Shown here: positions 748-52,557 of the stretch, piece by piece
Numbering within the stretch: the first letter of the stretch is position 1
Layout of the letters: every line of letters starts with the position of its first letter
From: Planctomycetota bacterium
GTDB taxonomy: Bacteria > Planctomycetota > UBA1135 > UBA2386
Reading direction: 5' to 3'
Length of the DNA: 53,579 nt
Assembly (NCBI GenBank): GCA_020849665.1
Contig: JADLFX010000020.1
Coordinates: 1 to 53,579, forward strand
Notes under the pieces: model-generated
Told to the model about the DNA's origin: nothing
Seen by the model: the letters and a program-made list of their open reading frames with translations, nothing else
Databases searched by the model: none
Position numbers and translations under genes: made by a program

Positions 748-3312
748 TCATGGGTTGGTGTTGTTGGCGTTCAGCAGGAGCACGTACTGGCCGAGGGTGG
801 AGCCCGGCACGGTGAGCGCCAGGGGGGCGAACTGGCCGGAGACCAGGCTGAACCAGGCCCCGGTGTTCGTGGTGCTGATCGAGGTCGTGCCCGTGCACGT
901 CGCCCAGACGATGCCGTTCACCGGGGAGCCGATGAAGCGGATCGTGCCGTCCGAGATCGTCAGGGCGGCCGTGTCGACCGGGGTGATCTGGGTGACCGCA
1001 CCGCCACCCGTGCTCATCACGAAGAGGTCCTCGCGATTCGTCGCGCTGGAGCCGAGACGGCGGGCGAACGCCAGCATCGTGCCGTCGTCGGAGAGCGTGA
1101 GGTTGTTGATGCCCCGGGTCGCACCACTGGCGCCCGTGCCGGTGTAGCTGGTGAGCTGCACGGCGGCAGTGCCGGCCTCGGCGTCGAACTTGAACACGTT
1201 GGCGTCGTTGAACACCGTCGTGGTCGCGCCCGCACCATTCTCCGCCACGAAGAAGACGTCGTTGGTGGTCGGCGAGCGGCGCATCTGGAACTCGAGTGCG
1301 AACCACGGATCCGTGGTGTAGGAGCCGAGGTAGTTGATGCCGCGGCCGATGGCGGGCGCGGTCCCCGCGGCGAACTCGGCGCCGGTGATGTCGACCAGGG
1401 CCAGGGTCGCGGCTTGGATGCCGACGACGTTGTTGACGATGCCCGACGTGGTGGCGAGGCTGCGGATGAAGTAGCGGAAGTTGCCGTTCAGCGAACCGAA
1501 CGAGCCACGGTGCAGGATGTTGCCGGTGGTGCCGCCGGCCGTGAACGGCGCGACGGTCGAGCCGGTGGTGGTCTTGGTCAGCGGCGTGACCGTCGCGGTG
1601 CCCACGTCGTAGCCATAGGCGTCCAGGGTGGAGGTCGACGCGGTGCCGGCGAAGAAGACCAGCTTCGTGTTGCTCAGGAAGTTGACGTCCACGAAGTAGA
1701 TCACCTGCGGGTCGAACACGCCTGCGCCGTTCACCTTGACCGGCGCACCGGCCTGCGAGCCGTCGGTCTTCACGACGTAGACGCTGCCCGGAGTGGCAGC
1801 CGCGGGAACAGCACGCGTGCCGGCACAGAACGCCACCAGCGAGCCGTCCGGGGAGAGGCTGGCCTTGAGGCCGATCGAGGAGCCGTAGCTCGTGCTCGGC
1901 GTGTACGCCGAGAGACCGAACTCGCTGATCAGGGTCGCAGTCGTGAACCCGGTGACGTTCTTGACCGTGAACGTGCCGGTCTTGTCGATCCCCGTGATCG
2001 CCACGAGGTCGCAGTTGGTCAGGCTCGTGGCCGGCGGGACCACCGCGCCGATCGGGAACACCACGGTCTTGCGGTCCTTCGAGATCCGGCGCGAGGAGCT
2101 GAAGATCAGCCCGTTGGGCTGGCCGGTGCCCAGGTTCGGCAGCGCCAGGCTGGCCAGCTTGGCCGAGCCGTCGGTGGGCGCCCAGAACCAGCCGCCGTTG
2201 GTACCCGCGAACACGGTCTCGTTGGCGAAGAACAGCGCCCCATCGAAGAACTGGGTGGGCGCTCCAACGGCCGGGGTGATGTCCAGTGCCGGGCTCGTCG
2301 TCGAGGGCCAGTTGGAGCCGTCCGTGCGGATCAGGTAGCACTTGTCCGGCACGCCGGCGCCGGCGGAGTTGGTGGAGTCACGCGCGGTGACGGCCATGAG
2401 CTTGCCGTCGTCGCTGAATGCGGCCAACGGCTGGAAGATGCTGGTGCTCGTGGTGGACGGACAGGTCAGCGCCGAGTCGGTCACGGTCAGGAGGACCTTG
2501 GCGACGCCGGTGGCCTTCTCGAACGAGACCACGTGGTTGATGCGGCAGTCGTTGGGGTTCGCCGTGGTGGAGCGGCCGCGCAGGAACGCCACGTCGTAGC
2601 CGTTGGGCAGGGCGATGGTCTGGTGCAGGACGCTCTTGGTGTCGCGTGCCGGCAGGTTGCGCCGGAACAGGTTCAGGTCCGAGTTGAACGGCGTGGACGA
2701 GAAGGTCGGGGCGTAGCCCTCGACGAAGCCGTCCTGGCCGTAGTGCCGGATCACCTGCATGCTGACGAGGGGCAGCCCCTGCGTGGTCCCGCTGCCCATG
2801 TCGGAATTGGTGACGAGGCGGAAGTCGATGTCCTGGCCGCCCAGCGTGCCGGTGCCGCCGGCGAGCGCCAGCTCGGTCGTGCCGATGCCGTTGGTCACGA
2901 TCACGTTGGCATCGCGGTCCGCGAGGAAGATCGTGCCGAGGCCGACGTTGAGGTCCGCCGACTGGAAGTCGACGCCCTGGCCGACCAGCGACGGGGTGTT
3001 GGGGATCGGCACCGCCTGCGTCGTCGCGCCGCTCGCGCCCAGGACGCCGTAGTAGAACGGCGCGAAGTTCACGGGGTCGAGGAGCAGGTTGCCCTGCACG
3101 AAGGGCAGACCCAGGCTGGTGCTCTGGGTCGTGTTCGCCGACCAGAGCATCACGTAGGCGTTGCCGGACTCCGTGGTCGGGTGGAGGACCGTGACGTTCA
3201 CGCTGCGACCGATCACGGGCGCCGAAGTCAACACGACGCTGCGGCCGGTCTGCGCGCTGGCGGACACCGCGGCGAGCGCGGCGGTGGCCGCGATCATCGA
3301 GATACGAAGCAT
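748..3312 (-). CDS. Secreted beta-propeller protein, 854 aa, with TolB/PD40-like repeats. Function unknown.
   Basis: N-terminal signal peptide (MLRISMIAATAALAAVSASAQT). Repeated SPDGSLVAF / SDDGKLMAV / SDDGTMLAFA blocks typical of PD40/WD40-like propeller blades. Thr/Ser/Gly-rich. ATG at 3312, TGA at 748-750. Confidence 0.7.
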   Translation of the reverse strand: MLRISMIAATAALAAVSASAQTGRSVVLTSAPVIGRSVNVTVLHPTTESGNAYVMLWSANTTQSTSLGLPFVQGNLLLDPVNFAPFYYGVLGASGATTQAVPIPNTPSLVGQGVDFQSADLNVGLGTIFLADRDANVIVTNGIGTTELALAGGTGTLGGQDIDFRLVTNSDMGSGTTQGLPLVSMQVIRHYGQDGFVEGYAPTFSSTPFNSDLNLFRRNLPARDTKSVLHQTIALPNGYDVAFLRGRSTTANPNDCRINHVVSFEKATGVAKVLLTVTDSALTCPSTTSTSIFQPLAAFSDDGKLMAVTARDSTNSAGAGVPDKCYLIRTDGSNWPSTTSPALDITPAVGAPTQFFDGALFFANETVFAGTNGGWFWAPTDGSAKLASLALPNLGTGQPNGLIFSSSRRISKDRKTVVFPIGAVVPPATSLTNCDLVAITGIDKTGTFTVKNVTGFTTATLISEFGLSAYTPSTSYGSSIGLKASLSPDGSLVAFCAGTRAVPAAATPGSVYVVKTDGSQAGAPVKVNGAGVFDPQVIYFVDVNFLSNTKLVFFAGTASTSTLDAYGYDVGTATVTPLTKTTTGSTVAPFTAGGTTGNILHRGSFGSLNGNFRYFIRSLATTSGIVNNVVGIQAATLALVDITGAEFAAGTAPAIGRGINYLGSYTTDPWFALEFQMRRSPTTNDVFFVAENGAGATTTVFNDANVFKFDAEAGTAAVQLTSYTGTGASGATRGINNLTLSDDGTMLAFARRLGSSATNREDLFVMSTGGGAVTQITPVDTAALTISDGTIRFIGSPVNGIVWATCTGTTSISTTNTGAWFSLVSGQFAPLALTVPGSTLGQYVLLLNANNTNP

Positions 3313-3523
3313 GCTGTCTCCTGAGGGATGGGGTCCGGCACAGGCCGGAAGAGAGGAAACGATGTGTCTCCGCCGCGACGTCTCAGGCGGACCGAGGCTG
3401 CACGCGGCGAAGGGGCGGAACAGTGTGCCAGAAGTCTACGTCGCCGTGGAGGGCTGGACTCCCGGGCCGCGCACGCCCCTCGACCCGCACGCCGGTCCGT
3501 GTGTCCAGGATTCGCGCGCGCGC

Positions 3524-5491
3524 TCAGCGGCCCTTGTCGCCGAGACCTTCCGGCGCAGGATTGCGCCCAACAGAAAGGTAGTCCCAGATCGCCCCCTGCT
3601 GGCGACGCACGTCGCCGCCCGGCAGGTCGCTGCGCAGCCGCCCCTCGGGCCAAGGCGGCGGCATGCCGCTCTCGGGCAGCGTGCGCACGGGATCGTCCAG
3701 GTGACGGTGGAACCATGTGCGGCGGACGCGCACCGGCACGAGGTCGAGATCGATGCCGCGCTGGCCGCGCCCCCCCGCGCGCGGTGGCGCGCCGGCGAAG
3801 CCGTGGCAGAGAACGCAGTCGAGCCCGCGCGCTCCCACGAGAACGCGCCCCGCGTCCGCGACGCGCGGATCGGCGGCGCGCTGCACGGCCTCGGCGCGCG
3901 GCTCGCCGCAGAGCGCGGCCAGGCCCTCGCCAAGGGTCGCGGTGGCGTGCGATGCGAACACCGGCATGCGCAGCTCGAGCCACGGCCGCGCGCCGCGCGC
4001 GCCCGCGAACACGGCATCCAGCCACTCGACCTGCAGGCGCTCGCCCAGGTCGAAGAGGCGCGGCGGCCGCTCGGTGAAGCGCGCGCGCCCCGCATCGCCG
4101 TGGCACTCCTCGCAGCGGTGCATCGCGACCGCGGCCAGAACGTCGCGCGCGGGTGCCACTCCCTGCCAGGGCAGCGCCGGTCCCCTCAGGTACTCCGCCA
4201 GCGCGGCGCGCTGGCGCGGATCGAGGGCATCGCGGTGGCGCGCCGGCACGGTCTCGGCCACTTCGCCCTGCACCATGCAGCCGCTGGCGATCGGCCGCAG
4301 CGCCCCGGTCCGGGCGCCGGGCCGCAGCGCCGCCACCTCGTGGCACGCCGCGCAGTTGCGCACCTCCATCACCATGTGCGCCTCCGCGGCCACCTCGTCG
4401 TCGGTGAGGTGCAGGTCCGGCATGCGGAACGGGGCGCGCGCACGCGTGCTCTCGAACAGATACGCGGCCAGATCCTCGGCCTCCGCGCGGGTGAGACCCA
4501 TCCTGGGCATCGTGCCCGCCGGCAGGAGGCGCAGCGGGTCGAGCAGGAACCCGGCCAGATCCGCGCCACGCAGCCACTTCTGTGCGACGTGTTCCAGACC
4601 GACCTGCCCGGGCTCCACGCGCGCTCCCGGGACGGCATGGCAGGCCGTGCAGCCGATCGCCGTGAAGTGCTCGGCGCCGCGCGCCACGCTCTCCAGCGGC
4701 TGCGTCGGCACGGGAATCGGCGCCGGCGCACCCGCGAGGTGGCGCGCCACCGCGTAGCGCGCGCGCACGCCCATCGCATCGGCCGTGCCCAGGGCGGGCA
4801 TCTTCGCGCCAGGCATCACGCGCGCTGGCGCGAGCAACCACTCGAACACGTACTCGGGACGGACGCGGCCGCGCAGCGAGGCCAGTGGCTGTCCGCTGCC
4901 TGCGTTCTCGGGCTGCGGCATGCGGTGCGCCTGCGTCGGCTCGCCTGGCGGGAGATGGCACGCGATGCAGCGCAGGTCGCGGAACAGCCGCGCCCCCGCG
5001 GCGCGCAGCATGAAGCTCCGCTCGGCCTCCGGATCCCAGGGCCCGGGGACCGGCGCGCACTCGGCGCCGCGCACCGGCGTTGCGCGGCCGGACGCGTCGC
5101 GGGTCTGCACCTGCACCCGGGCCCCGGAACGACCCTCCACCTCCAGGACGAAGCGCGTGCCCGGCGCCACCGCGAGCGGATCGTCACCCACCTGCCGATC
5201 CGCCACGCGCAGCCGCGCTGGCACGTCGGCCTCGAGCGCCAGGCGCAGCGTGGCCGGGGGCCCGGAATGCGCCCACACCAGGGTGGCCGTGAACGCCCCG
5301 GGCGCCAGCGTCTCGTGCAGCGTGCGGCCCGGCTCCACCGCGAACGCGGGCCGCGGCAGGCGCAGCCACGCCACGCGCCCGGCTGCGTCCTGCACGCGGA
5401 CCGCGACCGGGAGTTCGCGCTCCTGGGCCGCGGCGGGCGCGGCGAGCGCGCTCAGGAGCAGGAGTCCACGCTGGATCCGCGCGGCGCCCAT
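3524..5491 (-). CDS. Periplasmic multi-heme c-type cytochrome with five CXXCH motifs, 655 aa.
   Basis: Signal peptide MGAARIQRGLLLLSALAAPAAAQE. Heme-binding motifs CIACH, CTACH, CAACH, CEECH and CVLCH are spread along the protein. Ends 8 nt after the next gene, so likely co-transcribed. Confidence 0.75.
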   Translation of the reverse strand: MGAARIQRGLLLLSALAAPAAAQERELPVAVRVQDAAGRVAWLRLPRPAFAVEPGRTLHETLAPGAFTATLVWAHSGPPATLRLALEADVPARLRVADRQVGDDPLAVAPGTRFVLEVEGRSGARVQVQTRDASGRATPVRGAECAPVPGPWDPEAERSFMLRAAGARLFRDLRCIACHLPPGEPTQAHRMPQPENAGSGQPLASLRGRVRPEYVFEWLLAPARVMPGAKMPALGTADAMGVRARYAVARHLAGAPAPIPVPTQPLESVARGAEHFTAIGCTACHAVPGARVEPGQVGLEHVAQKWLRGADLAGFLLDPLRLLPAGTMPRMGLTRAEAEDLAAYLFESTRARAPFRMPDLHLTDDEVAAEAHMVMEVRNCAACHEVAALRPGARTGALRPIASGCMVQGEVAETVPARHRDALDPRQRAALAEYLRGPALPWQGVAPARDVLAAVAMHRCEECHGDAGRARFTERPPRLFDLGERLQVEWLDAVFAGARGARPWLELRMPVFASHATATLGEGLAALCGEPRAEAVQRAADPRVADAGRVLVGARGLDCVLCHGFAGAPPRAGGRGQRGIDLDLVPVRVRRTWFHRHLDDPVRTLPESGMPPPWPEGRLRSDLPGGDVRRQQGAIWDYLSVGRNPAPEGLGDKGR

Positions 5492-5498
5492 CGTCGCG

Positions 5499-6809
5499 TC
5501 ACCGCTCGCGCACCCGCAGATTGCGGAACGCCACCACCTCGCCGGCGGCGTGGTTCTGCAGCCCGATGTGCCCCGTGCGGGACCGTTCGCCGGTGTACTC
5601 GCACACCTTCCTGCCGTTCACCCAGACCTCGTAGCGCTGGCCCTCGGCCACGATGCGCATCGCGTTCCACTCGCCGACCGGGCGGCGCACCAGCTCGCTG
5701 GCGTCCTGGAACGAGTAGATCGAGCCGGTGCGGGTCTTGGCGCCGCCGGCGTCGCAGATCTGCACCTCGTAGCCGTCGCGCACGGCGTCCCACGGATCCC
5801 GCGGCGGAGGGAAACGCACGAACACGCCGCTGTTGTCCTCGGCCTTGGCGAGGCGCCACTCCAGCTCCAGCTCGAAGTCGGCGAACGCCTTCTCGTGGAA
5901 CCAGAGCAGGCCCATTCCCCCGTCGCCCACCAGCGCGCCGTCCTGCACGGTGAAGCGTCCTGGCCCGCACTGCGTCCATCCGGCGAGGCTCGTGCCGTCG
6001 AAGAGCGTGCGCCACCCCTCGGGGCCCGCGGCCCAGTGCGGCCTCGCGCTCGCCCAGCACAGCGCGTTGGCGACCAGGCGCAGGAGATTCGGGTCCGCGA
6101 ACGCCTCCTTGCCGTGCCCCTGGATCGTGTAGAAGACGCGGCCCTCTCCGTACGCCTTGGTCCACGCCACCGGACGCATCTTCTTGTCGGCAGGCCCTTC
6201 GCCCACGAGCACCACCTGCTTGTCGTCGAGGCGGCACTCGTCGAGGTAGTAGAACTCGTCGGGGTAGGTGTGGTCCTCGATCCCGGCCAGCACCGGCGCG
6301 TCGCCGGCCAGGCGCCGCACGGTGATCGGGCCGAAGGGCGGGTGGCTCTTGAACTTCCCCCCCACCATCGCGACGAACTCGCGGTTCCACTTGAACGAGT
6401 CGGCGGCGCAGTGCAGCCCGACCCAGCCGCCGCCCCGGCGCACGAAGTGCAGGAGCGAGTCGCGCTCCTGCTGGTTCAACCCGAGCTTCTCGCCCTGGTG
6501 GTACGCGAGGACCACGTCGAAGCGCTGCGCCATGCCGGCGTCGAGGATCCGCGTCGGCCGCTCCTCGGGCCGCGCGGCCTCCGGCTCGCCGTCCTTCACG
6601 AGACGCAGATGCGTCACGTCGAGCTTCAGGTGTTGCGCGAGCCCGGCGAGGAGCAGCTTGGCATTGCCCTCGAAGTCGTGGTAGCCGCCGCCGGTCATCA
6701 GCAGGACGCGCAGCGGTCGGGCATCGGCCGGCGCGGGTGGATGCGGATCCTGCGCGACGGCCGGGACGGCGAGGAGCACGAACGGAAGGACGAAGTTGGC
6801 GATGGGCAT
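5499..6809 (-). CDS. Secreted ThuA-like (trehalose-utilisation type) domain fused to a DUF1080 (3-keto-disaccharide hydrolase-like, jelly-roll) domain.
   Basis: Start trimmed to MPIANFVLPFVLLAVPAVAQ (signal peptide); the upstream in-frame extension overlaps nadE and is Arg/Cys-rich junk. N-terminal half: LRVLLMTGGGYHDFEGN... (ThuA-like). C-terminal half: WRTLFDGTSLAGWTQ...GHIGLQNHAAGEVVAFRNLRV (DUF1080 signature). Confidence 0.75.
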   Translation of the reverse strand: MPIANFVLPFVLLAVPAVAQDPHPPAPADARPLRVLLMTGGGYHDFEGNAKLLLAGLAQHLKLDVTHLRLVKDGEPEAARPEERPTRILDAGMAQRFDVVLAYHQGEKLGLNQQERDSLLHFVRRGGGWVGLHCAADSFKWNREFVAMVGGKFKSHPPFGPITVRRLAGDAPVLAGIEDHTYPDEFYYLDECRLDDKQVVLVGEGPADKKMRPVAWTKAYGEGRVFYTIQGHGKEAFADPNLLRLVANALCWASARPHWAAGPEGWRTLFDGTSLAGWTQCGPGRFTVQDGALVGDGGMGLLWFHEKAFADFELELEWRLAKAEDNSGVFVRFPPPRDPWDAVRDGYEVQICDAGGAKTRTGSIYSFQDASELVRRPVGEWNAMRIVAEGQRYEVWVNGRKVCEYTGERSRTGHIGLQNHAAGEVVAFRNLRVRER

Positions 6810-6861: not shown

Positions 6862-8514
6862 TCAGCCTTCGACGAGGAAGCTGTGCGCCACCGGCACGCG
6901 CCGGCCGTCCCAGCAGCGCTCGGTGACCCGCAGGGTGGGCGCGTACTGGTAGCGCTTGAACTCGTTCTTCTGCATGCGCGCGAAGATCCCGGCCACCTCG
7001 CCCGGCGCCATCCCGGTGCGCCGCGCCACCTCCGACACCGGAACATCCTCCTCCACCAGGAGGCGCAGCACGGGATCGAGCACGTCATAGGGCGGCAGGC
7101 TGTCGGTGGTGAGCTGCCCCGGACGCAGCTCGGGCGAGGGCGGCTTGGCGAGGATGTGCGCGGGGATCCGCTCGCCTTCGCGGTTCAGCCAGCGCGCCAG
7201 CTCGTACACCTCGGTCTTCCACAGGTCGCCGAGCACCGCGAGGGCGCCGCACATGTCGCCGTAGAGGGTACAGAAGCCCATCGCCGCCTCGCTCTTGTTG
7301 CCGGTGGCGAGCAGGAGGTGGCCGAACTTGTTCGAGTAGGCCATCAGGAGCACGCCACGGATCCGCGCCTGCACGTTCTCCTCGGTGACGTCGAAGGGCC
7401 GGTCGCCGAAGAGCGGCTGCAGCGTGCCAGTGACCGCCTCGTAGGCGTCCTGGATCGGCAGCTGCTCCAGGCGGATGCCGAGGTTGCGGCACAGGGCCTC
7501 GGCGTCGGCGAGCGAATGCGGGGTCGAGAACGACGAGGGCAGCGCCAACCCCACCACGTTCCCGGGCCCGAGCGCGTCGACCGCCAGCGCGGCGGTGACC
7601 GCCGAGTCGATGCCGCCGGAGACACCCAGTACGGCGCGCGCGAAGCCGAACTTGGCGAAGTAGTCGCGCAGCCCGCGCACCAGCGCCCGCCAGCTCATCT
7701 CGACGCGTTCGGGGAACACGGGCTCGAGCTGCCACGGCGCGCCGGTGTCCACCACGAAGAGCCCCTCCTCGAAGAGCACCGGCGTGAACGCGAACCCCTC
7801 CGGCTTCACGGCCATCGAGCCGCCGTCGAAGAGCAGGCCGACGTTGCCGCCGACGAGGTTGCAGTACAGGAAGGGCACCCGGTGGCGGCGCGCGGCCGCG
7901 CGCAGCATGTCCGCACGCAACCGCTCCTTGCCGTGGTTCCACGGGCTGGCGGAGAGGTTCACGACCAGCTCGGCGCCGGCCTGCACCAGCCGCTCGACCG
8001 GATCGACCGGGTAGAGGCGCTGGCGGAAGAAGTGCGCGTCGTTCCAGCCGTCCTCGCACACCGCCAGACCGACCTTGCGCCCTGCGACCGTGAGCAGGTT
8101 CTCCTGCGGCCGGGTCCAGGGCTCGAAGTAGCGGCTCTCGTCGAAGATGTCGTACGTGGGCAGCAGGCACTTGCGTGCCACGACGCGTGCGAGCCCGTCC
8201 TCCACCAGCGCCACGGCGTTGCAGAGCGGCCGGCCGCCGATCTTGCGCCGTTCGTTGGCGGCGAGGCAGCCGACCAGCACGGGCAGGTCGGGGGGCAGGT
8301 CGCCGGTCAGTTCCTGCAGGGCGCGCTCGTGCGCGGCCAGGAAGCCCGGACGCAGCAGCAGGTCCTCGGGCGGATAGCCGCACAGCGCCAGCTCCGGGGT
8401 GACCACGAGGTCCGCGCCCTGCCGCCGGGCCTCGTGCGCCGCCTTGGCGATCGTGCGCCGGTTGCCGGCGAAGTCGCCGACGGTGGTGTCGATCTGGGCC
8501 AGCGCGATCCGCAC
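6862..8514 (-). CDS. nadE: Glutamine-dependent NAD+ synthetase.
   Basis: N-terminal CN-hydrolase (nitrilase) domain plus C-terminal NAD synthetase domain with the PP-loop SGGIDS. 550 aa. GTG start. Confidence 0.9.
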   Translation of the reverse strand: MRIALAQIDTTVGDFAGNRRTIAKAAHEARRQGADLVVTPELALCGYPPEDLLLRPGFLAAHERALQELTGDLPPDLPVLVGCLAANERRKIGGRPLCNAVALVEDGLARVVARKCLLPTYDIFDESRYFEPWTRPQENLLTVAGRKVGLAVCEDGWNDAHFFRQRLYPVDPVERLVQAGAELVVNLSASPWNHGKERLRADMLRAAARRHRVPFLYCNLVGGNVGLLFDGGSMAVKPEGFAFTPVLFEEGLFVVDTGAPWQLEPVFPERVEMSWRALVRGLRDYFAKFGFARAVLGVSGGIDSAVTAALAVDALGPGNVVGLALPSSFSTPHSLADAEALCRNLGIRLEQLPIQDAYEAVTGTLQPLFGDRPFDVTEENVQARIRGVLLMAYSNKFGHLLLATGNKSEAAMGFCTLYGDMCGALAVLGDLWKTEVYELARWLNREGERIPAHILAKPPSPELRPGQLTTDSLPPYDVLDPVLRLLVEEDVPVSEVARRTGMAPGEVAGIFARMQKNEFKRYQYAPTLRVTERCWDGRRVPVAHSFLVEG

Positions 8515-8567: not shown

Positions 8568-9488
8568 TCACCGTACCGCCGCCGGCAGGGAGAACTCGAC
8601 GGTCTCGACCCGCCCCTCGACCTCGCGTACCTCGCTGGCCCCCAGCTCGCGCAGCCGGTCCAGGACCCGGCGCACGCTCACCTCGGGCGTCGACGCGCCG
8701 GAAGTCACCCCCACCGCGCGCAGGCCACGGAACCAGTGTGCCTGCAGCTCCTCGGGGCCGAGCACCAGGTAGGCCGGCACCCCCGAGGCCGCGCCGATCT
8801 CGCGCAGGCGGTTGCTGTTCGAGCTCGAAGGGTCGCCGATCACCAGCCACAACTCGACCTCGCCGCGCAGGGCCTTCACCGCGTCCTGGCGGTTGGTGGT
8901 CGCGTAGCAGATGTCCTCCTTGCGCGGCGTGCGCAGCTTGGGGAAGCGGCGCTTGAGCACCGTGAGGGTGGCCATCGCCTCGTCCACGCTGAGCGTGGTC
9001 TGGGTCAGGACCGCCACGCGCTCGGGATCGGGCACCTGCACCGTCGCGGCCGCGGCCGGATCCTCGACCACGATCGTGCGCTCGGGCGCCTCGCCCACAA
9101 CACCCTCCACCTCGACGTGATCCTCGTGCCCGATGAGCAGGATCGTCAGGCCCTCGCGCGCGAAACGCCGCGACTCGACGTGCACCTTGGTCACCAGGGG
9201 GCAGGTGGCGTCGATCGCCTTCAGCCCGAGCCGCTCGGCCTCCGCGAACACCGCGGGCGCCACGCCGTGCGCCGAGAAGATCACGTGGGCGCCGCGCGGC
9301 ACGTCGCGCAGGTGGTCGACGAAGATCGCCCCCTTGTGCACCAGATCGTCCACGACCACGCGATTGTGGACGATCTCGTGGCGCACGTAGATCGGCTTGC
9401 CGTAGCGGGCCAGGGCGCGCTCGACGATCTCGATGGCGCGCTCGACGCCGGCGCAGAACCCGCGGGGACGGCAGAGGAGGACCTTCAT
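8568..9488 (-). CDS. ispH: 4-hydroxy-3-methylbut-2-enyl diphosphate reductase (IspH/LytB).
   Basis: Start trimmed to MKVLLCRPRGFCAGVERAIEIVE, the canonical IspH N-terminus with the first conserved Cys. About 306 aa, typical for IspH. Confidence 0.9.
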   Translation of the reverse strand: MKVLLCRPRGFCAGVERAIEIVERALARYGKPIYVRHEIVHNRVVVDDLVHKGAIFVDHLRDVPRGAHVIFSAHGVAPAVFAEAERLGLKAIDATCPLVTKVHVESRRFAREGLTILLIGHEDHVEVEGVVGEAPERTIVVEDPAAAATVQVPDPERVAVLTQTTLSVDEAMATLTVLKRRFPKLRTPRKEDICYATTNRQDAVKALRGEVELWLVIGDPSSSNSNRLREIGAASGVPAYLVLGPEELQAHWFRGLRAVGVTSGASTPEVSVRRVLDRLRELGASEVREVEGRVETVEFSLPAAVR

Positions 9489-9627
9489 GTCGGGCCGGAG
9501 AGTGTGGGCCATGGGCCGGCGGGGCTCAAGCCCGGCGCGCAGCGCGGCCGGTGGCGAGGCTCGCCGAGCGGCGCGAGCATCCCGCGGAACGACGTTGCCC
9601 GCTCCCCGCACGCCGCCCCGGCGACCC

Positions 9628-10790: not shown

Positions 10791-11906
10791 CTAGCGCAGC
10801 TCCATCACCAGCCCCGCCCCGCGCAGCACCTGTCCGGTGGTGGCCATGACCGTGCCGAGGCTGTGGACGCGCGCCACGCCGAGCGGGCCGCACACGGTGG
10901 CGCGCAGGCCCAGGGAGGTCACGTAGAGCAGCGGGTTGGCGGAGATGTCCTGGGCCACGGCCTGGGCGCGCATCTCCTGGCCGACGATGCTGCGCGACGA
11001 CGGCAGATCGAAGCGCAACCGGCCGATGCCCTGGTCGTCGGCGGTGCCGATCACGATCGCGAGCATCTCGGTGTTCAGCCAGCAGTCGTGCCCGCCGATC
11101 ACCCCGAGGTCGAAGGGGATGCGGAAACCGTTCCAGGTGCCGTTGTCGGTGGCGCCGAGGAACACGCCGAACGGGGCCCGGTTGGGCAGCTCGGTCACGG
11201 TGAACGTGAGCGCCTCCCCGGCCTTCAGGGAGTCGTTCACCTCCAGCGCGATCGGCCGGCCGGCGCGGCTGCTCACGCAGCGCGGGCCAAGACGGCCGAA
11301 GCTGGTCCGCCCGCTGTCGCAGAGGAACGGGGTGTCCAGCCGGTACATGCCCGCGGGCTGGAGGTTCACCTGGATCTCCACCACCAGCCCGAGCGGGTCA
11401 CGCGGCGCCGGCGTGACCGGAGTGGTCGCGAACCACCACGGGGCGGCGAACGGCAGCAGCACGGTGGCCGGGCGCGGCCCCGACGCCATGGGCGGCTGTG
11501 CCGGCAGTGCGATGCGGGCGTCCGAGATCACCTTGGTCTGGTCCGGTCCATGGTTGTCCTGGAAGCGGGCCGACACGCCGTCCGAGCGCACGCGCGTGGA
11601 CGACAGGTACACGAAGGTGACCAGGTACTGCTTCAGGGGGTACTGGTCGTAGCCGGTCTGGGCCGACCAATCGGCGCGCAGGGCGATCCCGGTGAGCTGC
11701 GTGGGACCCTGGAACGGCAGGGTCTCGGGGTCGTAGAGGCACTGGTGGCGGATCGGCTGATCCACGCCGAAGGGCAGGAAGGTGCTGCTCGGCCCCTCGA
11801 TCCCCGCCAGCTGCTTCGGCACGAACCAGGATCCCTGCGCCAGACCTGGGGCGGCCAGGATCGGGAGCAGCGAGACAGGGAGGATCGGCCGCATGTCCGC
11901 TGGCAT
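10791..11906 (-). CDS. Secreted hypothetical protein, about 370 aa. A distant paralogue sits at the 3' end of the window.
   Basis: Signal peptide (MRPILPVSLLPILAAPGLAQG). Balanced composition and third-position GC bias. Weak similarity to the partial ORF at 52558 (EGPSSTFLPFG...IRHQCLYD versus EGATTSSFPFS...VRYQQVHAD). Confidence 0.6.
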   Translation of the reverse strand: MPADMRPILPVSLLPILAAPGLAQGSWFVPKQLAGIEGPSSTFLPFGVDQPIRHQCLYDPETLPFQGPTQLTGIALRADWSAQTGYDQYPLKQYLVTFVYLSSTRVRSDGVSARFQDNHGPDQTKVISDARIALPAQPPMASGPRPATVLLPFAAPWWFATTPVTPAPRDPLGLVVEIQVNLQPAGMYRLDTPFLCDSGRTSFGRLGPRCVSSRAGRPIALEVNDSLKAGEALTFTVTELPNRAPFGVFLGATDNGTWNGFRIPFDLGVIGGHDCWLNTEMLAIVIGTADDQGIGRLRFDLPSSRSIVGQEMRAQAVAQDISANPLLYVTSLGLRATVCGPLGVARVHSLGTVMATTGQVLRGAGLVMELR

Positions 11907-12087
11907 CGGCGCGTGCGCGGGCCCGGCTTGAGACCCCTACGCCGGCGGGCGTCGCGGACGCTCCAGGACCGGTCCCGTCGCGGGACGCGACACCTCAAGG
12001 GGAGTGATCAACACTCCGACAATGCGCGAGGAGCCCGCCTCGGGAGGCGAGGACGACTGTCGAGCCGAACACCACCCAGGACCGAAC

Positions 12088-28586: not shown

Positions 28587-29534
28587 CTACGAGGCCGCCC
28601 GCGCGGCGATCCCCCGGCCCGGCGCGAGGTACTCGCCCATCGGCAGCACGGTGAAGCGCGCCCGCAGCGCCGTCAGGGTGTCCTCCAGGATCGCCTCCTT
28701 GCGCGCCCAGGCGACATCCATCCCGGGGAAGAAGTCGAGGTCGCGGTGTTCGCCGTTGCCGACGAAGTCGAGCGAGTGCAGCAGGTAGCTCGGCGCCACG
28801 CCGCGCAGCCGGCAGAGGCCGAGGCCGAGGCGCAGGTAGAACGACGCCAGGCCGCGCGAGAAGCGCGACAGCCACACCACGTAGCTCGTGTGGAACGGCG
28901 TGCGCAGGAGCGGGATCGTGGTCACCGGCAGCGACCACAGCTCGGGGGCTCCGGGATAGCGGCTCGGCCGCAGGCTCTGGAACGCGTCCTTGATCCCGCC
29001 GTACATCGCCTTGCGTTGCTCCCGCTCCGCCTTGCTCATCTTCGAGTGGAAGAAGTAGTAGGCGCGGCACAGCGGGCCCAGGAAGGTCGGCAGCGGCGAG
29101 CCGTCGTAGTGGAATCCGCCCTCGCGCAGGATCGCGGGCAGCCGGGGCGACCACGCGAATCCCGGCGCGCGGAATCCCTTGGGTCGCACGCCGAGGCGTG
29201 CCTCGATCAAGTCCGCGGCGCGCAGCACCTCCTCGCGCATGCGCTCGGGCTGCAGCGCGGCGAAGGTCGGTTCGTGGTGCCAGGAGTGGCAGCCGATCTC
29301 GTGGCCGCGCTCCACGAAGGGCCGGATCGCGGCGACCCGGTCGGGATGCTCCAGGTCGGCGGCGATCACGAAGAGCGTGAGGCGCAGCCCGTGCCGGTCG
29401 AGCATCGCCAGCAACCGCGCGCACACCTCCGGGACGACGCTGCGCGTGGCCTCCCAGCCGGGCCGGCCGGCGGCGCGCATGTAGGTCCACGCGTCGTCGA
29501 GGTCGAGCGAGAGCGTGGCCGGCGGCAGGCTCAT
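28587..29534 (-). CDS. Polysaccharide deacetylase (NodB-homology, CE4-like).
   Basis: Start trimmed to MSLPPATLSLDLDDAWTYM. The LTLFVIAADLEHPD...GHEIGCHSWHHE segment contains the Asp and His motifs of NodB-type deacetylases. Overlaps the upstream gene by 4 nt. Confidence 0.75.
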   Translation of the reverse strand: MSLPPATLSLDLDDAWTYMRAAGRPGWEATRSVVPEVCARLLAMLDRHGLRLTLFVIAADLEHPDRVAAIRPFVERGHEIGCHSWHHEPTFAALQPERMREEVLRAADLIEARLGVRPKGFRAPGFAWSPRLPAILREGGFHYDGSPLPTFLGPLCRAYYFFHSKMSKAEREQRKAMYGGIKDAFQSLRPSRYPGAPELWSLPVTTIPLLRTPFHTSYVVWLSRFSRGLASFYLRLGLGLCRLRGVAPSYLLHSLDFVGNGEHRDLDFFPGMDVAWARKEAILEDTLTALRARFTVLPMGEYLAPGRGIAARAAS

Positions 29535-30868
29535 CTGGCCAGCACCTCGCGCCGGGTGTGCGGACCGCCCAACTGCCGGGCCAGGAAGCGTTCCGCCGCA
29601 CGGCGCGCCAGCCCCACGCAGTCGCTGTTGTTCAGGATGCAGGCCGAGAGCTGCGCGTTGTTGACCACGTACACCTTGCCGGGCACGACCTCGCGCGGCG
29701 GCCGGACCGGCGCCGCGCCCACGCGCGGGATCGGCTGGATGAAGCGCGCCCGCTGCACGCTCTGGTGCAGCAGCCAGTCGCCGCCCGCCGCCGGGCGGAT
29801 GCGGCGCAGGTCGCGCAGCGCCGCCTCGGCGATCGCCGCGTCGTCCTGGCGGTGGATCGGATCCCCCGTGGGCGCGTAGCGGGGCAGGTAGACCAGCGCG
29901 TGGCCGTTGGTCTCCGCGCTGGCGTCGACCACGTTCGTGGTCTCGATCACGCCGGTGAGGCAGGAGCGGTCGTCCACCACGTTGAGGATGTAGTTGGCCG
30001 AGAGCGGCCGGCGCCCCACGGCCACGGTGCAGGCCACGCCCAGGTAGGCGGTGTCCTGCAGGCGCAGGCGCTCGGCGTCGGGCAGCATCGGCAGCAGCTC
30101 GGCGACCATCGGGTTGTGCATCGTGAGGAACACCGTGTCGGCCGGGAACGTGCCCGCGGGCGTGTCCACCTCCACGCCGTCGCGCACCAGGCGCACCGAC
30201 TCGACCTTGGAGCCCTCCACCACGCGCACGCCGAGCGCGGCGAGGCGCTCCAGCATCCGCCCGAGGATCGTGCGATAGCCGCCGCGCACGTAGCCGAAGG
30301 TGTCGCCGGAACCTCCCGCCTTGCGGGCCGAGGCAAGGCGCCGGATGGTCGCGAAGATGAAGCGCGCCGACACCCATTCCGCGGCGCTGCCGAGCTTGGC
30401 ACGCAGCAGGTGGCGCCAGAAGTCCCGGTAGCCGGGTTCGCCGCACCACGCACGCAGCCATTCGGCGGAGGTCTGGCTGTCGAGCCTGTCGTCCTCGAAG
30501 GCCCGCGGGGCACGCAGCGCCATCCAGCCGATCCGGAGCTTGGCGGAGAGCGGCAGCGTGGGCAGCCGCAACAGGTCGAGCGCGGTGTTCAGCGGACAGA
30601 GTCGGTCGCCGATCCAGCAGCCCTGCTGCGTGCGCCGCCACACCAGCTCGCCACCCAGCCCCAGCTCCTCGAGGAGTTGCAGCAGCTCGCGGTCGGAGGG
30701 CAGGATGACGTGGTAGAAGCGGTCCCAGACGAAGTCGTGGAAGCGTTGGGACAAGGACAGGCCGCCCGCGCTCTGCGCGTCGAGCACCGTCACCTGCAGC
30801 CCGCCCTGCGCCAGCTGGTGGGCGAGGGCGAGTCCGGTCATCCCGGCTCCCGCGACGACGGCCCTCAT
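29531..30868 (-). CDS. FAD-dependent oxidoreductase (amine-oxidase / protoporphyrinogen-oxidase-like fold).
   Basis: Start trimmed to MRAVVAGAGMTGLALAHQLAQGGLQVTVLDAQ (Rossmann GxGxxG dinucleotide-binding motif). 445 aa. Confidence 0.7.
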   Translation of the reverse strand: MRAVVAGAGMTGLALAHQLAQGGLQVTVLDAQSAGGLSLSQRFHDFVWDRFYHVILPSDRELLQLLEELGLGGELVWRRTQQGCWIGDRLCPLNTALDLLRLPTLPLSAKLRIGWMALRAPRAFEDDRLDSQTSAEWLRAWCGEPGYRDFWRHLLRAKLGSAAEWVSARFIFATIRRLASARKAGGSGDTFGYVRGGYRTILGRMLERLAALGVRVVEGSKVESVRLVRDGVEVDTPAGTFPADTVFLTMHNPMVAELLPMLPDAERLRLQDTAYLGVACTVAVGRRPLSANYILNVVDDRSCLTGVIETTNVVDASAETNGHALVYLPRYAPTGDPIHRQDDAAIAEAALRDLRRIRPAAGGDWLLHQSVQRARFIQPIPRVGAAPVRPPREVVPGKVYVVNNAQLSACILNNSDCVGLARRAAERFLARQLGGPHTRREVLAR

Positions 30869-31491
30869 GGCGTTCGGTGCGGGAGCTCCACCACGCGGTG
30901 GCACTTCTCGCACGGGAACCGACCGCGCACCGGCAGCTCCGCATCGGCCCCCAGCTTGAGGACCGGGTGGCCGCAGCGGCAGACGAGGCCCCGCACGCGT
31001 GCCGGGTTGCCGATCGCCAGGCCGTGCGGCGGCACGTCCCTCGTGACCACGCTGCCCATGCCGATCATCGAGAACTCGCCCAGCGTCACGCCCGGTCCGA
31101 TCACCGCGCCGGCGCCGATCGTCGTGCCGCGCCGGACCGTGGTCGTGAGCGTCTCCTCGGTCGGATCCGAGGTCTGCAGATCCTGCAGGTCCGGGTCGGT
31201 CGAGCGCGGGAAGCGGTCGTTGGTGAACACGGTGTGCGCCGAGATCATCACGCCGTCCTCGATCGTGACGCCGGCGCAGATGTAGACGACGGCGTTGATC
31301 TTCACCAGATCGCCGATCACCACTTCGTAGGCGACGTAGGTCTTCTCGCCGATGATGCACTTGGCGCCGATGCGGGCGTTCTTGCGGATGTGGACGTTGT
31401 CCCACACGCTCGTGCCCGGCCCCAGCACCACGCCGTCCTCGACCAGTGCGGTCGGGTGCACGCGCGGCGGCGGCAGCTCCTGCGGCTTCAC
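30865..31491 (-). CDS. Left-handed beta-helix (hexapeptide-repeat) sugar N-acetyltransferase, WbpD/PglD-like.
   Basis: GTG start 2 nt after the upstream stop. Hexapeptide repeats (IGAKCIIGEKTYVAYEVVIGDLVKINAVVYICAGVTIEDGVMIS...). About 208 aa. Confidence 0.75.
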   Translation of the reverse strand: MKPQELPPPRVHPTALVEDGVVLGPGTSVWDNVHIRKNARIGAKCIIGEKTYVAYEVVIGDLVKINAVVYICAGVTIEDGVMISAHTVFTNDRFPRSTDPDLQDLQTSDPTEETLTTTVRRGTTIGAGAVIGPGVTLGEFSMIGMGSVVTRDVPPHGLAIGNPARVRGLVCRCGHPVLKLGADAELPVRGRFPCEKCHRVVELPHRTP

Positions 31492-31493
31492 GG

Positions 31494-32480
31494 TCACACC
31501 TCCTGCCACTGGCGCTCGCGCGCCGAGCGGTAGGCGGCCTCGATCACGCGCACCGAGAGGATCGCGTCCTCGGCGGTGATCACCGGCGCCTCGGCGCCGC
31601 GGATGTTGCGCGCGAAGTTGCGCAGCTGGTTGCGGAACGCCGCCTTCTTGTCGTAGCCGGAGCCGAACACGGTCCACTCGGCGTCGCCGTCGCGCTTGTA
31701 GCGCGACACCTTCCAGCCCACTTCGATCGTGCCCTTCGCACCGTACAGACGCACGAAGCTGGGCACCTCCTTGTGGACGCTCCACGAGAGGTCGATCGCG
31801 CCCACCGCGCCGGCCTCGGTCTCCAGGAGCAGGCGGCAGGTGTCCTCGACCTCGATCGGCTGCACGTTGCGGGCGAACTGCGCCTGCACCCAGGCGATCG
31901 GCCCACACAGGTAGCGGGCCACGTCGACCGAGTGGCTGCCATTGTCGATCAGCACGCCCCCGCCGGACACCTCGCGCCGGCTGTTCCAGCGCTTGGTCAT
32001 GTCCACGCGTGCGCAGAACACGTTCTCGAAGAGGAGCAGGTCGCCGATGGTGCCCTCGTTGAGCAGGGCCCTGGCCTTGGCCATGTCGTCGACGAAGCGG
32101 AACTTCGACCCCATCATCAGCGTGCGCCCCGTGGTCGCCGCGGCCGCGAGCATGCGCTCCGCGGCCCGCGCCGTGGTCGTGAGCGGCTTCTCGCACAGCA
32201 CGTGCTTGCCGGCGCGCAGCAGCTGCACCGCCAGCTCCTCGTGGGTCACGGGCGGGGTCAGCACTAGGGCCGCGTCGATGCCGCCCTCGTCGAGCATCGC
32301 GCCGAGCGTGGGAAACGGCGGCACGCCCGTCTGGCGTGCCACGGCGTCGCGGCGTGCGGCGTCGACGTCGACCACGCCGGCGAGCTGCAGCTCCGCCACC
32401 TCGCCGATGGCGCCCAGGTAGGACGCGGCGATGCCGCCGCAGCCCACCACGCCCACGCGGATCCTGGCCTGGCCGGTCAC
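31494..32480 (-). CDS. Gfo/Idh/MocA-family NAD(P)-dependent sugar oxidoreductase (WbpB/GnnA-like).
   Basis: GTG start overlapping the upstream TGA. N-terminal Rossmann IRVGVVGCGGIAASYLGAIG...GKHVLCEKPL. The Arg/Gly-rich 5' extension of the ORF (31494-34274) is a different-frame artefact. Confidence 0.8.
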   Translation of the reverse strand: MTGQARIRVGVVGCGGIAASYLGAIGEVAELQLAGVVDVDAARRDAVARQTGVPPFPTLGAMLDEGGIDAALVLTPPVTHEELAVQLLRAGKHVLCEKPLTTTARAAERMLAAAATTGRTLMMGSKFRFVDDMAKARALLNEGTIGDLLLFENVFCARVDMTKRWNSRREVSGGGVLIDNGSHSVDVARYLCGPIAWVQAQFARNVQPIEVEDTCRLLLETEAGAVGAIDLSWSVHKEVPSFVRLYGAKGTIEVGWKVSRYKRDGDAEWTVFGSGYDKKAAFRNQLRNFARNIRGAEAPVITAEDAILSVRVIEAAYRSARERQWQEV

Positions 32481-34834: not shown

Positions 34835-35171
34835 GGCTGTGTTGCTGCGTCGTGCTGCCGTGGTGCTGGATCGGTCGTGGACGGTTGCGCGACCGCTCCC
34901 CTTGGAGCGGTGATCTGGCGGGACCGGGAACCGGGTGGTGCGGTGGCTGCGGCGCGGCTCGTTCCGGCCTCCCTCCCCCCGCAGAACCCTAGCCGTTGCC
35001 TCGGCAGGAATCGTCTGCAACTTGGTAGCAGAGGCGTCGCGTGGCGCCGCGGTGCGCCGAAACGAGGCAGGCACAGGGATCTCGTGCCGGGATCGGCGGC
35101 GGCGCGCCTCTGGCGTCGCCGCGCTGGCATCGCCGCTGCCGCGGCGGCGGCCGCCGCTGGCGACCGGCGGC

Positions 35172-43856: not shown

Positions 43857-44942
43857 TCAGACCGGCACCCGCTCCGCGCCACCCGCGGCCACGCACACGA
43901 GGGCCGGGCCGCCCAGGCGGGCCAGGAATCCATCGGCCGCCTGGCGCGTCGTGAGCGCGATCGCGCAGCCGCCGAATCCCGCACCCACCAGGCGCGCGCC
44001 CAGCGCGCCGGCGGCCTTGGCGCGCGCCACGAGCGCGTCGAGCTCGGGACAGCTCACGTCGTAGAGGTCGCGCAGTCCGGCGTGGCTCCGATCGAGGAGC
44101 GCGCCGAGCGCCGCGAGATCGCCGCGTCGCAGCGCCGCCTCGGCCTCGTCCACGCGCGCCGCCTCGTCGAACACGAAGCTCGCGCGCCGGCGCAGGAGCG
44201 GATCGGCCAGCACTCCGGCACGCGCCCGCCGATCCGCGCCCGGCACGTCGGCGAGCAGGCCGCCCGCCGGCGCGCCCAGCGCCTGCGCCGCCGCGAGGCA
44301 CTCGCGCACCCGGGCGTTGTAGCCGTCCTGTGCGGCACCGCCCTTGGGCGCCGGCACGCCCGAGTCGAGCACCACCACCACGAGCTCCTCGGGCATCGCG
44401 ATCGGGCGGGCGCGCAGCGGGCGGAACTCGATCCGCACGCAGTGCCCGGGACGGCCCAGGAGCGCGATCGCCTGGTCCATGCCGCCCGACAGGGTTCCGA
44501 CGTAGCGCTCGGCCAGCCGCGCCTCCTCGGCCAGGGCGAGGCGATCCCCCGCTTCGCCGAGCGCCAGGAAGGTGGCCACGACCAGCGCCGACGACGACGA
44601 GAGTCCGGCCGCCACCGGCACGGTGCTCGAGACCAGCAGCTCGACGCCCCGGACCGGGGGCCGGCAGCGCGCGGCCGCGACCACGTAGTCCACCCAGGTG
44701 CGGCGCGGCGGCCGCGTCGCCAGGGCTGCCAGGGGGATCTCCTCGGCGGGGAAGCGCCCGGGGTCGGCGTTGCACACGCGCAGCACGGGCGCGGCGAGCG
44801 GCGTCGCGCGTACCTCGGTGCGGCGGTCGATCGCCATGGGCAGCACCGCGAAGCCGTTGTAGTCGACGTGTTCGCCGATCAGATTGACGCGGCCCGGCGC
44901 GCGGCCGATCACCGCACGGAGCGGATGCGGGTTCAGGACCAA
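43857..44942 (-). CDS. galK: Galactokinase (GHMP kinase family).
   Basis: GRVNLIGEHVDYNGF galactokinase signature and the GHMP ATP motif (PVAAGLSSSSALVVA). Confidence 0.85.
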   Translation of the reverse strand: MVLNPHPLRAVIGRAPGRVNLIGEHVDYNGFAVLPMAIDRRTEVRATPLAAPVLRVCNADPGRFPAEEIPLAALATRPPRRTWVDYVVAAARCRPPVRGVELLVSSTVPVAAGLSSSSALVVATFLALGEAGDRLALAEEARLAERYVGTLSGGMDQAIALLGRPGHCVRIEFRPLRARPIAMPEELVVVVLDSGVPAPKGGAAQDGYNARVRECLAAAQALGAPAGGLLADVPGADRRARAGVLADPLLRRRASFVFDEAARVDEAEAALRRGDLAALGALLDRSHAGLRDLYDVSCPELDALVARAKAAGALGARLVGAGFGGCAIALTTRQAADGFLARLGGPALVCVAAGGAERVPV

Positions 44943-44954
44943 GCGCCGGCGATC

Positions 44955-47032: not shown

Positions 47033-47104
47033 CGCCCTAGCCTAGGACGCGAGCCGCGGGTTCCCGAGGCTCGAGGCGCTACACTCCCGCCCCCTCCGCC
47101 CGCG

Positions 47105-52399: not shown

Positions 52400-52500
52400 G
52401 CGTGGCGCGCGTCGTCCGCGCGGCCCGGGTGGCGCGCGTCGCCCGCGCGGCCCGGGTGGCGCGCGCAGCCTGCGTAGCCCGCGCGGCCTGGCGCCGGGGG
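52400..52500. repeat. Intergenic GC-rich tandem repeat of about 27 bp, roughly 3 degenerate copies.
   Basis: gtggcgcgcgtcgtccgcgcggcccgg / gtggcgcgcgtcgcccgcgcggcccgg / gtggcgcgcgcagcctgcgtagcccgcgcggcctgg read directly. Overlapping artefact ORFs translate as RAARATRAARATRATRAA. Confidence 0.7.
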
Positions 52501-52557
52501 GCCGGGTCGGCTCCGGCCCTCCCCAAGCGACGGGCCATGGGGTGTGATGGCGGAACC

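Follow-up and report, generated by a model that had tools for sequence, protein, structure and literature searches.

The locus considered here lies at positions 748-6809 of a 53,579-bp stretch of planctomycete DNA (Planctomycetota bacterium, assembly GCA_020849665.1, contig JADLFX010000020.1), which is called the window in the following, represents the complete contig and has a GC content of 72.8%. It holds three consecutive minus-strand open reading frames (ORFs): a 436-aa gene (5499-6809) for a fusion of a ThuA and a DUF1080 domain, as seen from Pfam, homologues and an AlphaFold2 model, a 655-aa gene (3524-5491) for a five-haem c-type cytochrome, and an 854-aa gene (748-3312), recognised by its ORF and signal peptide, for a secreted all-beta protein rich in Thr, Ser and Gly. 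A sequence-only reading of the window had proposed that these genes encode a periplasmic route for the oxidation and cleavage of 3-keto sugars, wired to a dedicated multi-haem cytochrome. The gene row itself has been borne out: the three ORFs have a GC content at third codon positions of 0.89-0.95, as in real genes, and all three translations start with Sec-type signal peptides ending A-x-A/Q, read directly as MPIANFVLPFVLLAVPAVAQ/DP for ThuA-DUF1080 (residues 1-20, 6809-6750), MGAARIQRGLLLLSALAAPAAAQ/ER for the cytochrome (residues 1-23) and MLRISMIAATAALAAVSASAQ/TG for the 854-aa protein. The proposed periplasmic location, or export, of the proteins is plausible. The ThuA-DUF1080 gene stops with TGA at 5501-5499 and the cytochrome gene begins with ATG at 5491, which leaves a spacer of 7 nt (5492-5498, read directly from the minus strand) and corrects the earlier view, in which the cytochrome was said to end there after a gap of 8 nt. 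A promoter and terminator scan of the minus strand between 500 and 7300 has given nothing usable and no terminator-like site. The 854-aa gene follows 211 nt downstream of the cytochrome and has its own AGGAG ribosome-binding site.

Both domains of the fusion protein, as named in the sequence-only reading, have been recovered by Pfam above their gathering scores. The ThuA domain (PF06283, about residues 30-253, 6722-6051) reaches 110.6 bits against a cutoff of 33.4 (1.6e-31, profile positions 49-209), and the DUF1080 domain (PF06439, 3keto-disac_hyd, residues 265-434, 6017-5508) reaches 155.8 bits against a cutoff of 26.8 (1.7e-45). The ATG at 6809 has been chosen as the start because homologues with 58-63% identity align over as much as the full length of the protein. 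AlphaFold2, run on 42 homologues, gives a model of high confidence (mean pLDDT 92.7, pTM 0.85), and Foldseek relates its N-terminal domain to the ThuA-like structures 4E5V (TM 0.69, rmsd 2.6) and 1T0B (TM 0.71), so that a GATase1-like fold can be assigned. The alignment of the fusion proteins shows an invariant set of His44, His133, His156 and His232 together with Asp184 and Glu185 in the ThuA domain. The C-terminal jelly roll matches the DUF1080 structures 3OSD and 8TDA (BT2157), 8V31 (AL2) and 8RR2 and 9FBE, the latter two being '3-keto-glycoside eliminase/hydratase' structures, with E values of about 1e-13 and 24-25% identity.

In its first report, BT2157 appeared as a 3-keto-trehalose hydrolase (PMC8121099); it has since been re-assigned as a 3-keto-alpha-glucoside 1,2-lyase and 3-keto-2-hydroxyglucal hydratase (bioRxiv 10.1101/2024.03.25.586180), which supersedes the initial description of DUF1080 proteins as 3-keto-glycoside hydrolases. 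Its catalytic channel holds the conserved residues E103, N134, E164, Q166, Y190, K245, Q273 and H275 (10.1101/2024.03.25.586180). Six of these eight (N134, E164, Q166, Y190, Q273, H275) correspond to N326, E348, Q350, Y365, Q418 and H420 of the window protein, all of them invariant or nearly so in 42 fusion proteins. The mapping has been made by HMMER alignment to 3NMB with a constant offset of +30 to the BT2 numbering, 3NMB being taken as a close BT2157 relative because of the same PDB match range and fold matches of similar TM. From these residues, catalytic equivalence of the DUF1080 domain with BT2157 appears plausible.

The second protein carries Pfam cytochrome c domains (Cytochrom_C / Cytochrome_CBB3) and, as had been stated, exactly five haem-binding CxxCH motifs, located at residues 175, 281, 380, 460 and 559 (4969-4955, 4651-4637, 4354-4340, 4114-4100 and 3817-3803, minus strand), which are invariant or nearly invariant across 37 family members. 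Five class-I-like haem domains can be recognised, and the Met-Pro motifs M231, M328, M509 and M610, which follow haems 1, 2, 4 and 5, are likewise invariant or nearly so in the 37 sequences. A lone cysteine, C405 (nt about 4279-4277), is found 21 residues past the third CxxCH and is invariant in the 37 members. Because of this cysteine, and because haem 3 is the sole haem without a following conserved Met-Pro, the sequence suggests that haem 3 may be a His/Cys-ligated, low-potential haem of the SoxA/TsdA type. Residues of about 25-160 form a diverged PA14-like N-terminal domain that aligns with the N-terminal PA14 domain present in many family members; of 14 relatives with N-termini alignable to the window cytochrome, 6 give a Pfam PA14 match. 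Like P0012 and P0013, the window cytochrome is a short form without the C-terminal DUF6797-type extension of about 230 aa that is present in long forms; its last family-conserved column is L650 of 655, so the protein ends a few residues past the conserved region of the fifth haem domain. Giant fusions of the family additionally hold ConA-like Laminin_G_3 and DUF7133 domains.

An exhaustive HMMER search has returned 2794 representatives of this family at E <= 1e-3 and 1704 at E <= 1e-10. The best non-self matches lie at 1e-52 to 1e-43, and apart from one 99% identical copy from another sample all others have at most about 41% identity. The named members come from Pirellulales, Tepidisphaeraceae, Chthoniobacteraceae and other Planctomycetota, and by sequence the cytochrome belongs to a large five-haem family found mainly in bacteria of the Planctomycetes-Verrucomicrobia-Chlamydiae (PVC) group. 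Its genomic context has been evaluated in 80 metagenomic loci found with a 6-sequence alignment. A gene for a DUF7133/TIGR02604 beta-propeller is located immediately downstream on the same strand, or is fused to the cytochrome, in 64 of these 80 loci, which corresponds to about 64 of 70 informative loci, as 10 of the other 16 end within 1.3 kb. The gap is typically 30-40 nt, and one fused ORF is found in four loci; one partner is itself a DUF7133-Gfo/Idh/MocA fusion, and in the short form P0013 the propeller gene lies upstream with overlapping stop and start codons. The family is thus supported to be tied to putative sugar-active beta-propellers, and the five-haem cytochrome together with the DUF7133 propeller constitutes a very consistent and apparently uncharacterised two-gene unit (L093-L172, L002, L006, L173). 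In the whole window, a tblastn search with the DUF7133 partners (E <= 0.01) has found no DUF7133 homologue.

The fusion of ThuA and DUF1080 had been regarded as notable. A word-indexed protein search, however, has returned 672 relatives from Planctomycetota and many actinomycetes, nearly all with both domains among the matches listed, and a scan of one genome per GTDB species has confirmed at least 598 ThuA-DUF1080 stretches, so the fusion is a widespread architecture and not an unusual one. The actinomycete versions add the sugar-binding domains ricin-B and CBM6. In Streptomycetaceae, the ThuA-DUF1080 part occupies the C-terminus of a secreted protein about 1240 aa long, which has the domain order GSDH-PKD-CBM6-ThuA-DUF1080 (GSDH, an sGDH-like propeller, present in 78/80 loci), and it is preceded by genes for a Gfo/Idh/MocA protein and a xylose-isomerase-like TIM-barrel protein in 71 of the 80 loci, most of the others being truncated. 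This corresponds to the enzyme set of the BT2156-2159 3-keto pathway (L013-L092; for example L013, 2820-9107), and the library searches that were made have given no paper on the Streptomycetaceae GSDH-PKD-CBM6-ThuA-DUF1080 cluster. As all of these loci derive from one lineage, they are to be counted as few independent events. By analogy, they support the view that ThuA-DUF1080 is generally linked to the oxidative (3-keto) breakdown of glycosides, and this part of the original proposal has held up. A profile-profile comparison of the DUF7133 partners with the Streptomyces GSDH domain is collinear over 318 columns at a probability of 17% (E = 0.0014) and has not been used as evidence of homology.

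As 79 of the best 80 ThuA-DUF1080 loci of the genome scan were Streptomycetaceae, planctomycete contexts have been collected from single look-ups, which have given five independent loci. In the window, ispH/lytB (8568-9611) and nadE (6862-8514) precede the ThuA-DUF1080 gene on the minus strand. The closest relatives of the fusion protein, at 58-61% identity, are found in L007, an NCBI metagenome-assembled genome, and in the Logan assemblies L008 and L009. L007 retains the same backbone, with a homologue of the 10791-11936 ORF, lytB, nadE, a gene for a 192-aa membrane protein and then ThuA-DUF1080, and in the shorter contigs L008 and L009 a 199-aa homologue of the membrane protein lies directly upstream of ThuA-DUF1080. 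In all three, a homologue of the 854-aa protein (40-44% identity) follows directly after ThuA-DUF1080 at a gap of 93-195 nt, with no cytochrome in between, and the further planctomycete loci L010, L084 and L175 likewise are without this cytochrome. In L010, a LacY/nucleoside-type transporter gene of the major facilitator superfamily lies 10 nt downstream of ThuA-DUF1080, and an unrelated PSCyt/DUF1501 pair lies upstream on the other strand. The juxtaposition of ThuA-DUF1080 and cytochrome has thereby been shown to be lineage-specific, as relatives have only an intergenic spacer at this position, and the row of three genes is not conserved and found nowhere else. The window and L008 can still be aligned over part of the sequence upstream of the 854-aa gene, which fits a putative insertion of the cytochrome gene between the stop codon of ThuA-DUF1080 and a pre-existing intergenic region. 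The membrane protein of the relatives (L007 5788-6366, L008 2846-3445) is a multi-pass protein of 192-199 aa without Pfam match, with metal-transporter-like HTLxGPDHYLPL and GPCEWLLP motifs; its gene overlaps the start of ThuA-DUF1080 in L007, lies 20 nt from it in L008 and is missing in the window.

The 854-aa protein had been described as a beta-propeller belonging to the module. Its all-beta nature and a propeller-like appearance have been retained in the analysis, while the propeller assignment as such has stayed weak. Its sole Pfam match, to PD40, reaches 17.1 bits and thus stays below the cutoff of 20.9 (E = 0.0055), precomputed annotation gives a faint Tricorn_N match in one homologue, and only 6 homologues are found among 5.8 billion sequences. 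The AlphaFold2 model from the 6-sequence alignment is all-beta and of low confidence (pLDDT 56, pTM 0.56), with an N-terminal beta-sandwich at about residues 25-138 followed by repeated four-strand units consistent with propeller blades. Foldseek lists DPP-IV, prolyl-oligopeptidase and OphP propellers at E values of about 1e-10, yet with TM values of 0.28-0.30, and no similarity to DUF7133 or GSDH propellers has been detected. On the grounds of this missing similarity and the peptidase-type fold matches, the 854-aa protein has been rejected as the propeller partner of the cytochrome. Remoter homologues (37-38% identity; L011, L012) sit in unrelated contexts, and the linkage to ThuA-DUF1080, which is confined to close relatives, is therefore ascribed to recent common ancestry rather than function. 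The protein is probably a secreted propeller-like protein outside the functional unit. Downstream of its gene, at 246-297, an (AG)25 microsatellite is found in this contig of 73% GC.

A second DUF1080 gene, at 51076-52365 on the plus strand, encodes a secreted protein with a signal peptide and, in agreement with the sequence-only reading, two further DUF1080 domains (PF06439 1.9e-91; 305.6 bits in total over two stretches, about 51172-51762 and 51799-52350). As read from the translation, its first domain retains the N / E-x-Q / Y / Q-x-H residues. In the second, Q-S-E replaces Q-x-H and the conserved Tyr is gone, and it is probably non-catalytic and perhaps a binding module. The presence of three DUF1080 copies in one window had been considered notable; DUF1080 has been described as 'highly overrepresented among all Planctomycetes' (PMC5673643), Thermogutta having nine copies and Limnoglobus 17 (PMC7397252), and the copy number in the window is not unusual. 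The two DUF1080 genes are separated by 44 kb and unrelated genes, and the double-domain gene is placed outside the 748-6809 unit, to which no evidence links it. Just upstream of it, at 43857-49993, genes for a galactokinase, a BNR (sialidase-like) protein, and a DAO flavoprotein with a Pyr_redox_2/BFD [2Fe-2S] protein are located; the latter pair is HcnB/HcnC-like or opine-oxidase-like, and no link to DUF1080 has been established. Directly after it, a secreted Thr/Ser-rich ORF without Pfam match (52555-53577, plus strand) runs off the contig end, and between the two, at 52402-52465, there is a tandem repeat with a unit of 27 nt (2.4 copies, 97% matches). A repeated pairing of a DUF1080 gene with a secreted beta protein has been considered and dropped, the 854-aa protein and the 52555-53577 ORF showing no significant similarity to each other (E = 0.37). 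NCBIfam has given no family for the ThuA-DUF1080, the double-DUF1080 or the 854-aa protein.

Several characterised or recurrent systems share parts with the locus. With BT2157 of Bacteroides thetaiotaomicron and AL2 of Alistipes, the window protein shares the Pfam family, export, the jelly roll and the N/E-x-Q/Y/Q-x-H residues; it differs in its domain of about 170 instead of about 255 aa, in the fusion to ThuA and in the lack of an adjacent Gfo/Idh/MocA or TIM-barrel gene. Clusters of the BT2156-BT2160 type combine an exported Gfo/Idh/MocA protein, an AP_endonuc_2 lyase and DUF1080, whereas DUF1080 is the only one of these present in the window. The ThuAB system of Sinorhizobium meliloti and Agrobacterium, which forms 3-keto-disaccharides, has the ThuA domain (PF06283) and the ThuA-like fold in common with the fusion protein. 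ThuAB comes after an ABC uptake system and presumably works in the cytoplasm. In the window, by contrast, no ThuB (Gfo/Idh/MocA) gene is adjacent, the neighbours are nadE and the cytochrome gene, and the protein is exported and fused to DUF1080. The Streptomycetaceae proteins carry the same ThuA-DUF1080 module (35-42% identity over 325-430 residues) without any cytochrome, the hosts being Gram-positive, while the module of the window stands alone and is followed by one.

Regarding electron transfer, LacABC and ThuAB have been classed as cytochrome-c-dependent dehydrogenases by Liu et al. 2021 (PMC8121099), and a preprint of the Withers group has considered that cytochromes might re-oxidise Gfo-type enzymes (10.1101/2024.03.25.586180). 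LacABC of Caulobacter crescentus with CCNA_01705 resembles the locus in having a periplasmic DUF1080 protein near a cytochrome-c-dependent electron-transfer component (PMC9007349; PMC8121099); unlike LacABC, the window is without a GMC flavoprotein (LacA), and its cytochrome is a 655-aa five-haem protein of PVC type and not a dehydrogenase subunit. The PVC pairs of five-haem cytochrome and DUF7133/TIGR02604 propeller (L002, L006, L093-L172) agree with the window in cytochrome family, five CxxCH motifs, Met-Pro motifs and PA14-like N-terminus, and differ in that the window cytochrome has neither propeller partner nor DUF6797-type extension and lies behind a ThuA-DUF1080 gene, a pairing seen in 0/80 loci. 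Finally, the TIGR02604-HEAT-cytochrome c protein Lac161_ORF7 was able to complement a Lac- strain, and beta-galactosidase activity has been reported for it (10.1101/047167; PMC7397252).

The interpretation that is tentatively put first, held at slightly less than an even chance, is that of a lineage-specific and probably co-transcribed gene pair, in which an exported ThuA-DUF1080 protein would act on oxidised glycosides and a five-haem cytochrome would relay electrons, the dehydrogenase being encoded elsewhere. Co-transcription would follow from the 7-nt gap and the lack of a terminator-like site. In the periplasm, the DUF1080 domain would process oxidised (3-keto) glycosides in the manner of BT2157, by beta-elimination and hydration, and ThuA would be the accessory domain known from ThuAB, the 3-keto-disaccharide system. 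The 3-keto substrate would come from a dehydrogenase whose gene lies elsewhere in the genome, and the cytochrome would relay the electrons of periplasmic sugar oxidation towards the respiratory chain, a task that its relatives seem to perform for DUF7133 propeller enzymes. The 854-aa protein and the double-DUF1080 gene would not be part of the unit. By analogy with the links seen in Streptomyces, in the DUF7133 pairs and in Lac161_ORF7, such a functional pairing is plausible in the window. It is further favoured by the BT2157 residues conserved in the fusion family, by the ricin-B and CBM6 domains of the actinomycete versions, by the transporter gene behind ThuA-DUF1080 in L010, by the propeller partner fused to Gfo/Idh/MocA, and by the PA14 and ConA-like domains within the cytochrome family. 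The association of the two genes is at the same time a loose and recently formed one and not a conserved dedicated module.

A number of findings weigh against this interpretation, the first of which concerns the dehydrogenase. Every plausible ORF of the contig has been compared with Pfam, and tblastn searches have been run with the DUF7133 partners and with the Gfo/Idh/MocA, TIM-barrel and GSDH proteins of Streptomyces. In the 53.6-kb contig, these searches have revealed neither a GMC enzyme nor a dehydrogenase with a signal peptide, and DUF7133/GSDH propellers and TIM-barrel lyases are absent as well; AP_endonuc_2 has no match in the window, neither by Pfam on the ORFs nor by tblastn with the Streptomyces TIM-barrel protein; the proposed route is thus left without a periplasmic sugar dehydrogenase inside the window. 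The single Gfo/Idh/MocA gene (31494-32474, minus strand) lies 25 kb away, starts directly with the Rossmann fold and has no signal peptide. Its neighbours encode a UDP-GlcNAc 2-epimerase/DegT fusion, a hexapeptide transferase and a polysaccharide deacetylase. It has been rejected as the missing dehydrogenase on the basis of the absent signal peptide and this nucleotide-sugar cluster, and belongs to a nucleotide-sugar pathway of the cytoplasm rather than being a periplasmic glycoside 3-dehydrogenase. The cluster (28587-35332) also holds an amine-oxidase-type flavoprotein and resembles the WbpB-type 2,3-diacetamido-sugar pathway.

Also unfavourable are the contexts of the two families elsewhere. 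The cytochrome is adjacent in 0/5 of the other planctomycete ThuA-DUF1080 loci, a ThuA gene is found in 0/80 loci of the cytochrome family, and DUF1080 is near the cytochrome in 2/80 loci, which is about chance level for DUF1080-rich genomes. With the cytochrome absent from the closest relatives as well, the claim of a dedicated cytochrome or module is not supported. Partner-less short forms of the cytochrome adjoin housekeeping genes, as expected of general electron carriers. For the ThuA domain, a literature search on its biochemical role, or on ThuA with PQQ/GSDH, has given nothing beyond Liu et al. 2021.

These contexts give some weight to a second account, which is possible but not probable: ThuA-DUF1080 and the cytochrome may be unrelated neighbours, in that a general electron carrier has landed by insertion or rearrangement behind an exported glycan-active gene, so that any co-transcription would be meaningless. 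In line with this, L007, L008, L009, L010, L084 and L175 do not have the cytochrome at this position, ThuA does not occur among the 80 cytochrome loci, and the partner-less short forms in L098, L108, L115, L150, L152 and L153 lie next to ZIP transporter, menaquinone, AcrB, NDK, ABC, thymidylate kinase, Dus and GcvT genes. The surroundings in the window are themselves housekeeping genes (ispH, nadE), and the loss of the gene for the 192-199-aa membrane protein of the relatives marks the spot as rearranged. However, a same-strand spacing of 7 nt is typical of operons, both proteins are exported, and each of the two families has, independently of the other, ties to sGDH-like propellers and to sugar-binding domains, which makes pure chance less likely.

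The remaining difficulties concern the DUF1080 domain itself and bear on a third account, in which ThuA-DUF1080 would have nothing to do with 3-keto sugars, the DUF1080 domain being a CBM66-type lectin-like module or a conventional endo-glucanase or xanthanase and ThuA having another role. The domain is a short jelly roll of about 170 aa, in which most finger insertions of BT2157 are missing, so that the full set of five finger insertions, which form the catalytic channel in the BT2157-type subfamily, is not present, and BT2157 E103 and K245 fall in unaligned regions and are unmapped. Foldseek gives TM values (normalised to the target) of 0.55-0.57 to the BT2157-type structures 3OSD, 8TDA and 8RR2, and higher values of 0.69-0.77 to short uncharacterised DUF1080 proteins (3U1X/3IMM/3S5Q, TM 0.69-0.72) and CBM66 lectins. 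Because of the short form and this closer structural relation to uncharacterised DUF1080 proteins and CBM66, the equivalence with BT2157 is not established. In addition, the planctomycete DUF1080 protein THTE_1561 is cited as an endo-xanthanase/lichenase, DUF1080 genes are up-regulated on xanthan, and the definitions of DUF1080 and CBM66 overlap. Nevertheless, this account is considered unlikely, as the N / E-x-Q / Y / Q-x-H residues lining the active site of BT2157 are strictly conserved across the fusion family, and the orthologous module of Streptomyces sits with Gfo/Idh/MocA and TIM-barrel lyase-type genes.

Least convincing, and very improbable, is a self-contained three-gene route in which the 854-aa propeller or ThuA oxidises C3, the cytochrome takes the electrons and DUF1080 cleaves, for although three consecutive exported proteins are encoded, the relatives of the cytochrome pair with beta-propellers and the 854-aa model is propeller-like, the 854-aa protein lacks similarity to DUF7133 or GSDH and gives low-TM peptidase-type matches (DPP-IV, prolyl oligopeptidase) with PD40 below cutoff, its gene lies 211 nt away, with an upstream region that is conserved in part and a ribosome-binding site of its own, its remoter homologues occur in unrelated contexts, and the row has been found nowhere else.

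Returning to the pairing of ThuA-DUF1080 and cytochrome, a more far-reaching variant would see ThuA as a redox enzyme whose His/Asp/Glu cluster serves as a metal site that oxidises the C3 hydroxyl of the sugar and passes the electrons straight to the five-haem cytochrome. This is a long shot. If it were true, ThuA-DUF1080 and the cytochrome would represent a minimal two-protein, NAD-independent periplasmic oxidative glycosidase, and the fusion of ThuA to sGDH-like propellers in Streptomyces would be accounted for as well.

If the pairing in the window is functional, a multi-haem cytochrome would be attached to oxidative (3-keto, non-Koshland) glycoside cleavage in a planctomycete, which would also hint at a role of the uncharacterised ThuA domain. 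The window itself adds one non-conserved arrangement, and it is the comparative patterns that are of wider interest: the pairing of five-haem cytochromes with DUF7133 propellers, the Streptomyces fusion and the propeller-HEAT-cytochrome beta-galactosidase point towards exported sugar-oxidising systems as a widespread and so far uncharacterised family.

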